A DNA stretch of 64,000 nucleotides from Natronospirales bacterium (GCA_021792635.1 JAJYUH010000005.1:11717-75716); one strand, 5' to 3'; positions 40,792 to 59,461 are shown, numbered from the stretch's first letter. Notes: generated by a model not told the origin, from the letters alone. Numbers and translations: made by a program.

Positions 40792-41260
40792 ATTCGCGTT
40801 CCTTTGTCCCGGCGGCCTCAAACCACCGCCGCGGGCTTTAGATAGTAGAGTATCGGCCGGAAATGTCCAAGTGTGGCGCGGCCCTGCGGCAGAGCCAGGG
40901 ACGGACCTGAGCAGCAGAGCGCCTGGCCGGGAGGTGGAGCGGGGCTGGTATCCCGGTGCCCCTGATGGGCCACGGCGAAGGCTACTGAATTTCCCCCGGC
41001 GGTCATGGCGGCCAAGTCAATCTTGGGCCACATGCCAGCGGCGTTGATTGTTCAGAGTGCGGCTTTGCAGGTTTATACTGACCATGATACGCCGCGCGTG
41101 ACGTTCCGGCAGGAACGTCCGTGTGTCCGTAAGTTGGGCGCGTTTGCCGGAGCGATTATATTTATGCCGCTTCCGGTTGCTTCATTTTATCCCGGCTTTT
41201 GACGTGGGGCATGGTGAGCATTGAGATAATCACCGTAACCGAGTATGCAGCAGGTGAGCA

Positions 41261-42238
41261 GTGGACCATAGATTTGAAAAAACAGAATCGCCCGGTGTTG
41301 ACGTTGTACTGCCATTTTTCAATGCAGATTCTCGTATTCATCGCTCAATTCGTTCGATCCTCAACCAGAAACTGCCGGTGACGAAAAAATTGCGGTTAAT
41401 CATTGTGGATGACGGGTCCACCGAAGGCGGAAATATTCTGGAAAGCACGGGCGATGCAAGGATTACCATCATAAGACATGACATCAATAAAGGACGCGCT
41501 GCCGCGAGAAATACCGGAGCAAATGAGGGGCGTGGCGAAGTTATATTATTCCTGGATTCTGACTGCGTGCTGGAATCAGATTTGGCCTTGTCATCGCATT
41601 TATCTGTTCTGGAGGAGCATGACATGAGCGTTGGGCGGGTGAATGCCCATGTGGCCGGTTTCTGGGAACGCTACCAGAATGAACTTTCAACTCGCAGGCT
41701 GGCCCGTCTTGAGAAGAGCATGGATATCGAAGCTTTTACGGCTGCAAACTACGCCATAAAGAGGAGCGCATTCAGGGTCATTGACGGGTTCGATGAGCGG
41801 TACGTCAGCTACGGTTTTGAGGATCGGGATTTTTTCGTTCGGGCGCGTGCTAAAGGCCTGAAGATGGGCTTGGCGAAATCTTCGGTGGCCTACCATGAGG
41901 CGGATCTGAGTCTTGCGTCGGTGTGTGCAAAAATGAAGAACGCGGGTCAACGCACATCAACCCTGTTTATGGCCTCACATCCAGACTGTTATGCACGCAT
42001 GGGCTATGCAAAAGTGGATGTTAGATTGCATGGCAGACTGTTTAAATTATCAGTCCATGCCTCTTGGTGGTTGTTGGGGCCATGCGTGCGCATGGCAGAC
42101 CAGATGTTGCATATGGAAATTATTCCATTCCGTTTACGTGCAGGATGCGTAAGAGCATTCACAGCCATGGCATTTGCCTATGGAACAGTGTTGGCCTGTG
42201 GAAAAGATCGGCAGCGGAAAAACGACATGCCTGTGTGA
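41261..42238 (+). CDS. Glycosyltransferase family 2
   Basis: GTG start. VDVVLPFFNADSRIHRSIRSILNQ ... IIVDDGSTEG ... FLDSDC (DxD); GT-A fold signature. Markedly AT-richer than the core genes. Confidence 0.8.
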   Translation: MDHRFEKTESPGVDVVLPFFNADSRIHRSIRSILNQKLPVTKKLRLIIVDDGSTEGGNILESTGDARITIIRHDINKGRAAARNTGANEGRGEVILFLDSDCVLESDLALSSHLSVLEEHDMSVGRVNAHVAGFWERYQNELSTRRLARLEKSMDIEAFTAANYAIKRSAFRVIDGFDERYVSYGFEDRDFFVRARAKGLKMGLAKSSVAYHEADLSLASVCAKMKNAGQRTSTLFMASHPDCYARMGYAKVDVRLHGRLFKLSVHASWWLLGPCVRMADQMLHMEIIPFRLRAGCVRAFTAMAFAYGTVLACGKDRQRKNDMPV

Positions 42239-42297
42239 GAATGAAGCGCTGATCAATATTCAAGCTTTCAAGATATAAAATCATGGCGCGTTCTTGG

Positions 42298-43542
42298 TCA
42301 GTTATTGCAATCCCGCATTTTATCTCCACGCATGGCGATACGCTTCAATACTCCGGCATAGGCTTCGGCTTTTACCGCCCAGTCGTAGCGATCTACGGCG
42401 AAATCTCGTGCTTGCTTGCCAAGCAATCCGGCCATTGATCGGTCGCTCAGTATGCGGCAGATGGCTTTGGCAAGAGCAGGCGCGTCTCCCATGGGGACTA
42501 TCAGGCCGGTTGTGTCATTGTGAACCAGGTCATTGACCGCCGGTACCGTCGTGGTAACGACAGGACATCCACAACCCATGGCTTCCACCAAAACCAGGCC
42601 CAGGCCTTCCTGGTCGCCGCCGTCCGCGATCACAAAAGGCGCTGCGAATACCGCGGCCTGACGATAGCGGAAAGGGAGTTCGTCATTTCTAAGAGCGCCC
42701 ATGAAGGTAACTTTCGACACCAACCCAAGTCTGGTTGCTTGGCTGAGTAATCGCGCGCTCTCTGGACCCGAACCAATTATATTGAGATGTGCACGGGGAT
42801 GCTGTTTGAGAATAGCCGGTAAGGCATCAATCAGGTGCCGCAGGCCCTTCTTTTCCACCAGCCGTCCAACAAACAGTATCTCCGTGGTGGAGCGCTCAGC
42901 CGTCGTACCGGGGGTGAATCTGCAGGTCAGATCAACTCCCATGGATATCACATGAACTTTAGAGGTATCCGCGCCAATTTCGCATAATCGTTCCAGCATC
43001 GTTTGGCTTACTACGGTCACCGCCGCCGCCCTTTTGATAACCGCCCGTTGCAACATAGCCATTCCTTTCCCTCTAAGAGCGAACAGATCTGCCCCATGAG
43101 AAGTGACCAGGAAAGGTACCCCGGTCAAAACCGGTCTGGCCTGCCAGGCGGCGGCAATACCTTGTGGTATAAGCCAGTGCGCGTGGATTACATCAACCTG
43201 CTGCGACCGGATCAAACGTCTTAAAGCCAGACATAACCCTGCAAGGAAGAATGGAATCAGGATGAATTTCCATGGATGTCGACGGAGATTGGAAATAATC
43301 CCGCCTTGATTGACCAATGTTTCCATGGAGGAAAGGAAATAGCGGAAACGGATGACCCGGACTCCATCAAGATTTTCGCTCCTGGATGAGCCTGGCGCAT
43401 GGGGAGCAAGCACAGTCACATCAAAATGGGCGGTTAATCTGCGTGAAAGCTCGTGCACAAAGCCGGGCTCTGCATCACCCGGCCAACGCGGATAGGTGGA
43501 AGAGAGGACGAGAAGCCTGGGCTTTGCGTTGTTTTCACTCAT
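42298..43542 (-). CDS. Glycosyltransferase family 4 (GT-B fold)
   Basis: Start at MSENNAKPRLLVLSSTYPRWPGD. C-terminal EGLGLVLVEAMGCGCPVVTT (E-x7-E-type motif). Confidence 0.8.
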   Translation of the reverse strand: MSENNAKPRLLVLSSTYPRWPGDAEPGFVHELSRRLTAHFDVTVLAPHAPGSSRSENLDGVRVIRFRYFLSSMETLVNQGGIISNLRRHPWKFILIPFFLAGLCLALRRLIRSQQVDVIHAHWLIPQGIAAAWQARPVLTGVPFLVTSHGADLFALRGKGMAMLQRAVIKRAAAVTVVSQTMLERLCEIGADTSKVHVISMGVDLTCRFTPGTTAERSTTEILFVGRLVEKKGLRHLIDALPAILKQHPRAHLNIIGSGPESARLLSQATRLGLVSKVTFMGALRNDELPFRYRQAAVFAAPFVIADGGDQEGLGLVLVEAMGCGCPVVTTTVPAVNDLVHNDTTGLIVPMGDAPALAKAICRILSDRSMAGLLGKQARDFAVDRYDWAVKAEAYAGVLKRIAMRGDKMRDCNN

Positions 43543-59388: not shown

Positions 59389-59407
59389 GGAGTCTGGTCA
59401 GCGTGCT

Positions 59408-59434
59408 AAAAAAATGCCCCGGCAGGGCCGGGGC
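59408..59434 (-). terminator. Rho-independent terminator after the second pilin gene
   Basis: Minus strand reads GCCCCGGC-CCT-GCCGGGGC followed by ATTTTTTT, starting about 28 nt after the pilin stop and about 20 nt before the GT-C gene start. Confidence 0.75.
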
Positions 59435-59461
59435 AGAAATGATAGCAAATGCTCAGTTGGA

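Follow-up and report, generated by a model that had tools for sequence, protein, structure and literature searches.

Organization of the pilin–pilB interval

The type IV pilus (T4P) locus described here lies in a 64,000-nucleotide stretch of the genome of a Natronospirales bacterium (GCA_021792635.1 JAJYUH010000005.1:11717-75716), to which we refer as the window and from whose first letter all positions are counted. Between pilB, encoding the T4P extension ATPase, and the genes for two type IVa pilins, a segment of 18.7 kb (40792-59461) was found to consist of two units. The first is a conserved core of core-like GC content (53185-59388), harboring two paralogous genes for membrane proteins with a putative glycosyltransferase C fold and tetratricopeptide repeats (GT-C/TPR), a VapBC-like toxin-antitoxin pair and a membrane glycosyltransferase of family 2 (membrane GT2). 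The second is a variable, low-GC cargo (about 40890-53185), with a seven-gene operon for a predicted cytidine diphosphate (CDP)-activated sugar, a Wzx flippase gene and three genes for soluble glycosyltransferases (GTs). The reading that we favor, with some but not strong confidence, is that of an island for pilin O-glycosylation by a system of the lipid-phosphate/GT-C ('three-component') type, made up of a conserved core and an exchangeable cargo.

On its right-hand side, the segment is bordered by pilB (39076..40791, minus strand), which was assigned by Pfam (T2SSE, 7e-148, and MshEN). Its open reading frame (ORF) spans 39076-40821, with the conserved start MATTTV at 40791, and pilC, pilD and coaE lie beyond it on the minus strand. 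The left-hand conserved flank is formed by pilR (61466-62830) and pilS (62830 onward, listed to 63954), both on the minus strand and recognized by translation; PilS/PilR Pfam domains were detected at the equivalent position in two relatives (L001 and L006; the loci of relatives are given here by such L numbers). The series pilS-pilR-pilin-pilin...pilB-pilC-pilD-coaE runs in one shared direction throughout.

A preliminary description of this DNA had placed the segment between the end of the pilB block (40791) and the beginning of the pilin genes (59462, the stop of the proximal one) and had listed the genes in between. Both borders were reproduced, as was the gene content by means of Pfam and NCBIfam searches. 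However, what had been taken for one island resolved into a vertically inherited core and an exchangeable cargo, and the comparison with the divergent pilA and pilB genes of pseudomonads did not hold, since pilA and pilB are co-directional here and the genome is not that of a pseudomonad.

The GT-C/TPR membrane proteins

Paralogue A (57403..59388, minus strand; 661 amino acids) starts 73 bp past the stop codon of pilin 2, just beyond the pilin terminator, and is a putative pilin glycosylation enzyme on the basis of fold matches, a TPR profile and an invariant D39-D40 pair. Paralogue B (55143..57155, minus strand; 670 amino acids), likewise a putative pilin glycosyltransferase, is 42% identical to A over its full length and keeps the DDx motif and the family invariants. 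The C-terminal TPR was detected by profile search (E = 1.5e-17). The membrane domain gave no Pfam or NCBIfam match, even at E <= 10, with neither PMT_2 nor TMTC_DUF1736 being reached, and single-sequence as well as profile searches of PDB, Pfam and NCBIfam with the GT-C proteins returned TPR matches or nothing.

In a full-length AlphaFold model (predicted local distance difference test (pLDDT) 82.8), residues 1-425 formed a helical transmembrane (TM) domain and residues 429-656 TPR-like helices. Because Foldseek with this model returned only TPR proteins, residues 1-430 were modelled separately (pLDDT 83.6, predicted TM-score (pTM) 0.88). The high-probability Foldseek matches of this membrane part were all GT-C enzymes, namely eukaryotic STT3, PglB, ArnT, Pmt4 and PIG-U (probability 0.87-1.0, TM-score 0.37-0.49), while transporters in the same search stayed below a probability of 0.17. 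As the Foldseek E-values were weak (0.01-0.9), the support that this model-based comparison lends to a GT-C fold of the membrane domain is moderate.

The pair D39-D40, which corresponds to the DDx motif, is situated in the first extracytoplasmic loop directly after the first TM helix (residues 11-29) and was invariant in 18 diverse homologues. Other residues invariant among 14-18 homologues (39-75% identity) were R74, K96, H103, Q160-R161, K209-E210, H307-D308 and E370-H371-R372-N373-Y374. In the TMTC O-mannosyltransferases of the GT-C/PMT clan, motifs M1 (DD), M2 (..YRP..), M4 (KE..) and M7 (ER..Y) have been described (PMC7801869); compared by eye with these published motifs, the DD, YRP...LSF.N (Y near position 73, R74, P75...N84), KE and EHRNY sequences of the family resembled M1, M2, M4 and M7, respectively. 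Some family members carry the Joint Genome Institute (JGI) label 'protein O-mannosyl-transferase'. The adjoining GT2, of the polyprenyl-phosphate hexose synthase class, points to a putative polyprenyl-phosphate-linked sugar donor for the GT-C/TPR proteins. Among the candidates scored, the family comprised 2421 clusters at 90% identity, and at least 594 loci were found in species-representative genomes.

In the periplasmic repeat domain of paralogue A, residues C531 and C536 (window ~57781-57798) were invariant in 14 homologues and may form a disulfide.

The membrane GT2

The membrane GT2 gene (53185..54096, minus strand; Pfam Glycos_transf_2, 4e-32) encodes a protein that has two TM helices at its C terminus and belongs to the polyprenyl-phosphate hexose synthase class; we propose it to be the loader of the lipid carrier. 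Its best NCBIfam matches, none of which reached the equivalog cut-off (for AglJ, a score of 144 against a cut-off of 325 bits), were AglJ, dolichyl-phosphate hexose transferase, PpgS and ArnC, all of them synthases of polyprenyl-monophosphate sugars. Pfam revealed no Bac_transf, Glycos_transf_4, Wzy, Wzz or Wzy_C domain among the island ORFs of the window, and the lack of a Wzy_C match in any ORF also means that no PglL/TfpO-type enzyme was detected in the island. Similarly, tblastn with WcaJ and WzzE gave no match in the window or in 87 pil-island loci (L001-L087); the WecA query was insensitive and missed the MraY homologue expected in the window, so that only the WcaJ-type result is informative. 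With neither a phosphoglycosyltransferase domain nor a WcaJ-type enzyme at hand, the GT2 is the sole lipid-loading enzyme detected in the window island. As flippase candidate, the island offers a single protein, a 500-amino-acid MOP/Wzx protein encoded in the cargo.

Synteny of the core across relatives

The surroundings of the GT-C genes were tabulated for the best 80 species-representative loci carrying the family, as retrieved by tblastn. Of these, 67 were testable, i.e., had at least 800 bp of upstream sequence, and a pilin was counted if it lay within 1.5 kb upstream on the same strand. This was the case in 59 of the 67 loci, while two more had a pilin about 2.6 kb upstream. The GT2 lay downstream of GT-C in 54 of the 67 (51-91% identity) and directly adjoined it in 46, and pilB-pilC-pilD-coaE followed in every locus whose sequence extends that far. 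All five contexts that were inspected (homologues of 40-71% identity) had a pilin immediately upstream and the GT2 either after a single GT-C gene or after the second copy; variable GT, methyltransferase and flippase genes followed and, on contigs long enough to include it, pilB. Two GT-C copies were present in 30 loci and three in 2 loci, with L051 carrying three in tandem. A rule of one GT-C per pilin was ruled out, since some loci combine one pilin with two GT-C genes and others two pilins with one GT-C gene.

The carriers included uncultured Gammaproteobacteria, Acidiferrobacterales, Acidihalobacter and Rhodanobacteraceae (Dyella, Rhodanobacter, Luteibacter, Oleiagrimonas), as well as the betaproteobacterial Undibacterium, Novimethylophilus, Gallionella and Rhodocyclaceae; none of the best 80 loci came from Pseudomonas. 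The nearest species representative was a Natronospirales (Gammaproteobacteria) metagenome-assembled genome with 93% GT-C identity (L008).

Three relatives (L032, L043 and L053) possess minimal islands of about 5.1 kb with the order pilSR-pilin-GT-C-GT-C-GT2-pilB and no cargo, which indicates that the functional unit would consist of pilin, GT-C and GT2. In these cargo-free loci, the GT2 was 68-69% identical to that of the window. More generally, GT2 identity amounted to 63-78% where that of PilB was 57-83% and that of GT-C 29-72%, independently of the cargo. That the GT2 is as conserved as a core gene, while GT-C diverges at the pace of the pilins, speaks for a first sugar that stays the same and for an acceptor or glycan that varies. 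On the strength of this comparative evidence, the link of the GT-C/GT2 core to the pilin is well supported.

Among the relatives, cargo size ranged from nothing to more than 7 kb and the pilin-to-pilB distance from 5.1 to 12.9 kb, the distances being biased low because the loci were cut at 10 kb flanks; for this reason, a claim that the window holds the largest island was dropped. The preliminary description had also called the cassette far larger than described loci, which is overstated, as pilA-tfpW loci clustered with sugar-biosynthesis genes have already been reported (bioRxiv 10.1101/2020.04.19.049825).

Cargo genes and predicted sugar

Starting from the pilB side, the cargo opens with a soluble GT2 (41261..42238, plus strand; Pfam Glycos_transf_2, 2e-24) that has no TM segment and, with a GC content of 0.50 (GC at third codon positions (GC3), 0.52), marks the GC minimum of the island. 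It is followed by a GT4 (42298..43587, minus strand; Pfam Glyco_trans_1_4, 5e-36, and Glyco_transf_4) and by a second soluble GT2 without TM segment (44072..45211, plus strand; Pfam Glycos_transf_2, 9e-21). In other pil islands, the GT4 is commonly the immediate neighbor of the membrane GT2: homologues of 42-53% identity adjoin it in L020, L033, L048 and L052 and are found ~750 bp away in L069. The Wzx/MOP flippase (45235..46737, minus strand) was assigned by Pfam (Polysacc_synt, 2e-17) and by the NCBIfam MOP flippase family, and it has multiple hydrophobic segments.

The remainder of the cargo is the CDP-sugar operon (46748..52950, minus strand), whose seven genes were assigned by Pfam and NCBIfam. 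In transcription order, they encode an rfbF-like (glucose-1-phosphate) cytidylyltransferase (52180-52950), a 4,6-dehydratase (51107-52219), an RfbC-like epimerase (50559-51113), a TylC3-type C-methyltransferase (49339-50562), a DegT aminotransferase (48215-49342), a NeuD/PglD-type N-acetyltransferase (47553-48248) and a CmcI/rhamnosyl-type O-methyltransferase (46748-47563). Judged by these enzyme families, the most likely product is a CDP-activated hexose of the 4-acetamido-4,6-dideoxy type that is both C-methylated and O-methylated. In L008 (20521-21402), a short-chain dehydrogenase/reductase (SDR) of 293 amino acids stands exactly in the place of the DegT and N-acetyltransferase genes of the window (47553-49342), by which close relatives would make hydroxyl versus acetamido versions of the same C-methyl sugar. 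The hydroxyl analogue made by the reductase version would presumably be reminiscent of CDP-vinelose; nothing usable on vinelose-type CDP 3-C-methyl sugars was found in the literature searched.

The operon was also present in the pil islands of L003, L008, L028, L046, L075, L080, L088, L089 and L166 and directly after a GT2 homologue on a shorter contig (L130); the pil island of Dyella koreensis is among those that carry it. In the pil island of Rhodanobacter sp. Soil772, its proteins were 64-79% identical at the amino acid level, with GT-C reaching just about 36%. Homologues of at least 78% identity, plus several independent lineages, are in pil islands. Judged by this distribution, and by that of more distant homologues considered below, the operon is a widely used sugar module that pil islands have taken up repeatedly. 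Own MOP flippases were encoded in the islands of L020, L036, L076 and L077, in which the cargo was scanned and soluble transferase-type genes are present, and also in L005 and L007.

Base composition and exchange of the cargo

The three GC tiers that the preliminary description had seen by eye were recovered in a computed GC and GC3 profile. The region of the three soluble GTs (41-44.5 kb) showed a GC content of 0.51-0.54 and a GC3 of 0.52-0.58, and the rest of the cargo (44.5-53.5 kb) values of 0.54-0.62 and 0.51-0.71, respectively. For the GT-C genes, GC was 0.59-0.63 and GC3 0.76-0.77, and in the flanking core GC was 0.60-0.68, with a GC3 of 0.78-0.82 in pilB/C/D/R.

Alignment with L077, a relative at about 70% identity, placed the cargo edges at ~40890 and ~53200: the homology that extends from pilS to GT2 ended at window ~53217 and restarted at ~40890, about 100 bp upstream of pilB. 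In between, L077 carries a gene of the Epimerase_2 family and a Wzx gene, 2.7 kb in all versus 12.3 kb in the window. In comparison with L008, identity of the core was mostly 90-96%, and it fell to 56-69% over 47.5-49.5 kb. At the nucleotide level, the CDP operon was 82-92% identical to that of L003, while the pilin/GT-C core reached 68-77% except for one bin of 82% over pilin 2; the operon, being closer to L003 than the core is, was therefore exchanged at a later time than that of the divergence of the core. These cargo borders, the gene swap in L008 and the operon identity to L003 bear out the mosaic origin proposed earlier.

The hallmarks of a classical mobile island were absent. There is no tRNA in the window, Pfam detected no integrase or transposase domain in any island ORF, and a check for flanking direct repeats, suggested in the preliminary description, found none; a phage- or integrative and conjugative element (ICE)-type island was rejected on these grounds. 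An inverted 20-nt match (41405-41424 / 53921-53940, 95% complementary) was likewise discarded as an island border, since both arms are the GT2 'VDDGST' coding motif on opposite strands. Given this absence, we prefer cassette exchange by flanking homology, and exchange probably proceeds by homologous recombination in the conserved flanks, as at O-antigen loci.

Proposed mechanism and alternative explanations

In the favored reading of a pilin O-glycosylation island, the membrane GT2 would transfer, at the cytoplasmic face, a common hexose to undecaprenyl phosphate (Und-P), with a housekeeping nucleotide sugar as the donor, and the soluble GTs of the cargo would extend this lipid-monophosphate primer, with one added sugar coming from the seven-gene operon. 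The cargo Wzx would then flip the short lipid-linked glycan to the periplasmic face, where the two TMTC/TfpW-like GT-C/TPR enzymes would transfer it to Ser/Thr residues of the two PilA-type pilins prior to assembly, the TPR domain recognizing the pilin. PilR/sigma54 promoters would drive the pilin genes, and the strong terminator after pilin 2 would keep the glycosylation genes at a lower level of expression. Relatives swap the cargo, presumably through recombination in the conserved segments on either side (the 3' end of GT2 and pilB), and would thereby diversify the pilus surface glycan, plausibly under selection by pilus-specific phages. Whereas gene content, folds and motifs, synteny and the exchange of cargo are shown by the analysis, we infer the steps of this mechanism, and glycosylation itself, from family membership and synteny.

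As regards the claim of the preliminary description that the whole segment is a pilus-dedicated cassette with its own lipid-loading step and its own activated sugar, the recurrent order pilin, GT-C, GT2 upholds the first part for the GT-C/TPR and membrane GT2 genes, and the presence of the latter gene provides for lipid loading. By contrast, a link of the CDP operon, Wzx and the soluble GTs to the pilin glycan is not established, and neither is the feeding of that glycan by the operon sugar; a role of the cargo in the pilin glycan is plausible.

A hybrid route, which we put forward tentatively and regard as doubtful, would combine these elements as follows: an oligosaccharide would be built on undecaprenyl monophosphate by a GtrB/AglJ-like GT2 and soluble GTs, with exotic CDP-sugars, flipped by Wzx and moved en bloc to pilin Ser/Thr by a TMTC-like GT-C/TPR enzyme. 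To our knowledge undescribed in bacteria, such a route would be the O-linked counterpart of the archaeal dolichyl phosphate-based Agl pathway and would be widespread in environmental Gamma- and Betaproteobacteria, with the cargo acting as a pilus 'serotype' locus.

Several points weigh against a pilin glycosylation island. The Foldseek E-values for the membrane domain were weak and its TM-scores did not exceed 0.49. No GtrA-family flippase was found among the island ORFs, and the TfpW proline motif YX6PFX7P (periplasmic loop 4) was missing from both paralogues in a regular-expression search. Operon homologues of 50-65% identity occur for the most part in loci without pil genes, so that the cargo could serve another glycan. 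Six of the 67 testable GT-C loci (L050, L051, L066, L067, L068 and L084) had no pilin detectable in the available upstream sequence; the GT-C family is hence not strictly pilin-bound, and it may have non-pilin uses, or very divergent pilins, in these loci. We are not aware of a family member for which pilin glycosylation has been demonstrated, and we know of no bacterial case in which GT-C transfer from an oligosaccharide linked to undecaprenyl monophosphate is established, the known Und-P donors carrying single sugars.

The alternative that survives best, unlikely as we consider it, splits the function of the segment. The GT-C/GT2 core would put a single hexose on the pilin, and the cargo would build an unrelated glycan (an O-unit, a capsule or an exopolysaccharide unit) on a carrier whose priming enzyme is encoded at another locus, being placed here because the pilA-pilB gap is a recombination hot spot. 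The prevalence of operon homologues of 50-65% identity outside pil loci is in line with this, and so are the distinct GC and GC3 values of the cargo, its mixed gene orientation and its being swapped independently of the core; moreover, Wzx is typical of repeat units linked to undecaprenyl diphosphate (Und-PP), and the minimal islands do without any cargo. However, the cargo was found to include neither a WcaJ-type initiating transferase nor Wzy, Wzz or a ligase, and the same operon has been recruited into pil islands of several distant lineages. The conservation of the GT4 directly beside the GT2 in many islands also argues against a separate pathway, as does the finding that each relative's island examined for cargo with soluble transferase-type genes has its own MOP flippase.

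It is less probable still that the GT-C/TPR proteins are broad-spectrum periplasmic protein O-glycosyltransferases, or act on another envelope target, with the pilin being one substrate or a mere neighbor. Recognition of proteins is a generic function of TPR domains, many substrates are known for the related eukaryotic TMTC and PMT enzymes, and the six loci without upstream pilin would fit such a role, together with the copy numbers of GT-C and pilin genes, which do not track each other. Yet the co-oriented, immediate adjacency to a pilin is the dominant arrangement, and GT-C (35-45% identity) diverges as fast as the pilins (40-60%) while the GT2 stays conserved, a pattern that fits co-evolution with the pilin acceptor.

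That the whole segment is a general O-antigen/lipopolysaccharide or exopolysaccharide locus with no dedicated pilus role seems very improbable: although Wzx, a nucleotide-sugar operon and GT2/GT4 genes are of the types found in O-antigen clusters, and the sharing of units between pilin and O-antigen pathways is exemplified by TfpO-type systems, the order pilin, GT-C, GT2 recurred in about 90% of the testable loci across two proteobacterial classes, the island was always bracketed by pilin and pilB, and it was found to lack a polymerase, a chain-length regulator, a ligase, an ABC transporter and an initiating phosphoglycosyltransferase.

Comparison with known glycosylation systems

The closest likeness is to TfpW of Pseudomonas aeruginosa, which glycosylates pilin, sits after pilA and has the same architecture (bioRxiv 10.1101/2020.04.19.049825). 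As in group IV strains (Pa5196/PA7), the gene lies immediately past pilA and a terminator and encodes a protein of about 650 amino acids in which a multi-TM GT-C-like domain, carrying a DDx motif in its first periplasmic loop, is followed by a periplasmic TPR domain at the C terminus; in P. indica and K. denitrificans, sugar-biosynthesis genes are clustered with pilA-tfpW, and a lipid-phosphate-linked donor, proposed here, would be a further common trait. In contrast, the TfpW donor is polyprenyl-phosphate-D-arabinofuranose, obtained via phosphoribosyl pyrophosphate (PRPP), DprE1/DprE2 and a GtrA-like protein, whereas the window has a GT2 hexose synthase, with Wzx as flippase candidate. Pfam detected no domains of D-arabinofuranose donor genes (DPPR synthase, DprE1/DprE2) in any island ORF. 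The window further differs in its two paralogous GT-C genes and in its large hypervariable cargo with soluble GTs.

With the three-component systems GtrA/GtrB/GtrV, ArnC/ArnT and CsbB/GtcA/YfhO (PMC11127046, PMC11194591), the locus shares a membrane GT2 of the class that makes a polyprenyl-phosphate sugar and a putative GT-C enzyme that would transfer it outside the cytoplasm. Here, however, the acceptor would be a pilin instead of O-antigen, lipid A or teichoic acid, GtrA is missing, and the presence of soluble GTs, Wzx and a nucleotide-sugar operon is suggestive of an oligosaccharide rather than a single sugar. The resemblance to TMTC1-4 and PMT enzymes concerns the N-terminal GT-C domain with C-terminal TPRs and, by eye, the DD, YRP, KE and E.R.Y-type motifs; a protein Ser/Thr acceptor and a polyprenyl-phosphate sugar donor would be further common traits. 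The family differs in the lack of a Pfam PMT_2/DUF1736 match and in the bacterial periplasmic setting.

In the Agl pathway of Haloferax volcanii, a polyprenyl monophosphate is primed by the GT2 AglJ and extended by soluble GTs together with a methyltransferase; once a Wzx-like flippase has acted, a GT-C enzyme carries out the transfer to protein (AglP, AglR, AglB/AglS). The likeness is one of logic only, AglJ being the best NCBIfam match of the window GT2, as the Agl pathway is archaeal, N-linked and dependent on an oligosaccharyltransferase of the AglB/STT3 type. TfpO/PilO and PglL share with the locus an accessory gene after pilA and, on our reading of the locus, a pilin target and a Wzx-flipped lipid-linked glycan; they belong, however, to the Wzy_C/WaaL family, of which the window island has no domain, and use Und-PP-linked O-units made elsewhere.

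What sets the locus apart from these systems is a TMTC-like GT-C family for which no curated model exists, a GT2 hexose synthase replacing the D-arabinofuranose route, the lack of GtrA, the combination of Wzx, soluble GTs and a CDP-sugar operon, and a hypervariable cargo. This combination would imply an oligosaccharide linked to a lipid monophosphate. Neither the GT-C/TPR family nor its association with the GT2 was found described in the literature searched; for X. vesicatoria, strains whose pil cluster includes transferase genes have been mentioned without further analysis (PMC10333488).

Across at least several hundred species-level genomes of Proteobacteria from soil, groundwater and acid environments, the standard content of the gap between pilin and pilB is a set of GT-C/TPR genes paired with a polyprenyl-phosphate GT2. 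The hypervariable sugar cargo resembles in its behavior a serotype locus, as known for O-antigens or capsules, that is attached to the pilus. Pilin glycosylation protects type IV pili from pilus-specific phages and has been worked out in few pathogens (TfpO/PglL, TfpW). Cultured carriers (Dyella, Rhodanobacter, Undibacterium and Novimethylophilus) would allow tests of the chemistry, and the system may offer a new protein-glycosylation route for glycoengineering as well as a marker for phage-driven pilus diversification in uncultured bacteria.

Pilin genes, regulatory elements and toxin-antitoxin pairs

Pilin 2 (59462..59944) and pilin 1 (60112..60615), both on the minus strand, were assigned by the Pfam families Pilin and N_methyl. 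Upstream of pilin 2, the sigma54 -24/-12 box at 60002-60016 is the sole exact match to TGGCAC-N5-TTGC in the 64 kb window; the sigma54-like box of pilin 1 (60658-60672) has one mismatch to the consensus. The gap between pilin 2 and GT-C contains a strong intrinsic terminator (59415..59435, minus strand) with a 9-bp stem including 8 GC pairs and a subsequent T7, which was the best of the terminator scan. Pilin-accessory cassettes typically have such a terminator following pilA (PMC11841053).

The two pilin genes differ in GC3 (0.66 in pilin 2 versus 0.77 in pilin 1), and pilin 2 shares 90% amino acid identity with the pilin of L003, against 68-72% for pilin 1 and the GT-C genes. Like the cargo, pilin 2 may have been exchanged horizontally.

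The VapBC-like pair of the core (54213-54928, minus strand) consists of a PIN toxin (54213-54641; Pfam PIN, 7e-11) and a Phd/YefM antitoxin (54638-54928; PhdYeFM, 1e-9). It is present in L008 and L077 and not in L001, L003 or L013, and it is 93-94% identical at the amino acid level to its counterpart in L077 (14229-14944), where the neighboring GT-C and GT2 reach 69-78%. This patchy presence and an identity far above that of the flanking genes suggest a recent horizontal insertion into the conserved core.

The gene list of the preliminary description had missed a mazEF-like pair (60837-61408, plus strand) located between pilR and pilin 1 on the opposite strand, with a mazE-like antitoxin (60837-61091) and a MazF/PemK toxin (61079-61408). 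Its DNA matched L013 (8881-9448) at 71% over 568 nt, inverted and between the two GT-C genes of that locus; with a homologue elsewhere in this island, the cassette appears to move within such islands. In relatives, the interval from pilR to the first pilin contained insertions of 2-4 kb (L008, 6696-8665; L077, 6021-8373; L013, 1528-5545), and L077 has a duplicated pilR 3' fragment at 6891-7276. By this comparison, the pilR-pilin gap is a second insertion hot spot of the locus.

Two ORFs, 43496-43963 (plus strand) and 60724-61131 (minus strand), had no Pfam match and a low GC3 and were taken as spurious. Away from the pil locus, a series of ORFs on the plus strand (window ~13400-34100) resembles, by ORF sizes and order only, the division and cell wall (dcw; mra/mur/fts) cluster followed by a secA-sized ORF of 905 amino acids, and on the same grounds would be ordinary core genome without O-antigen-type genes. 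A bacterial RNase P RNA of class A (12146-12505, plus strand; 322.8 bits) was the sole Rfam match at the gathering threshold in the window.

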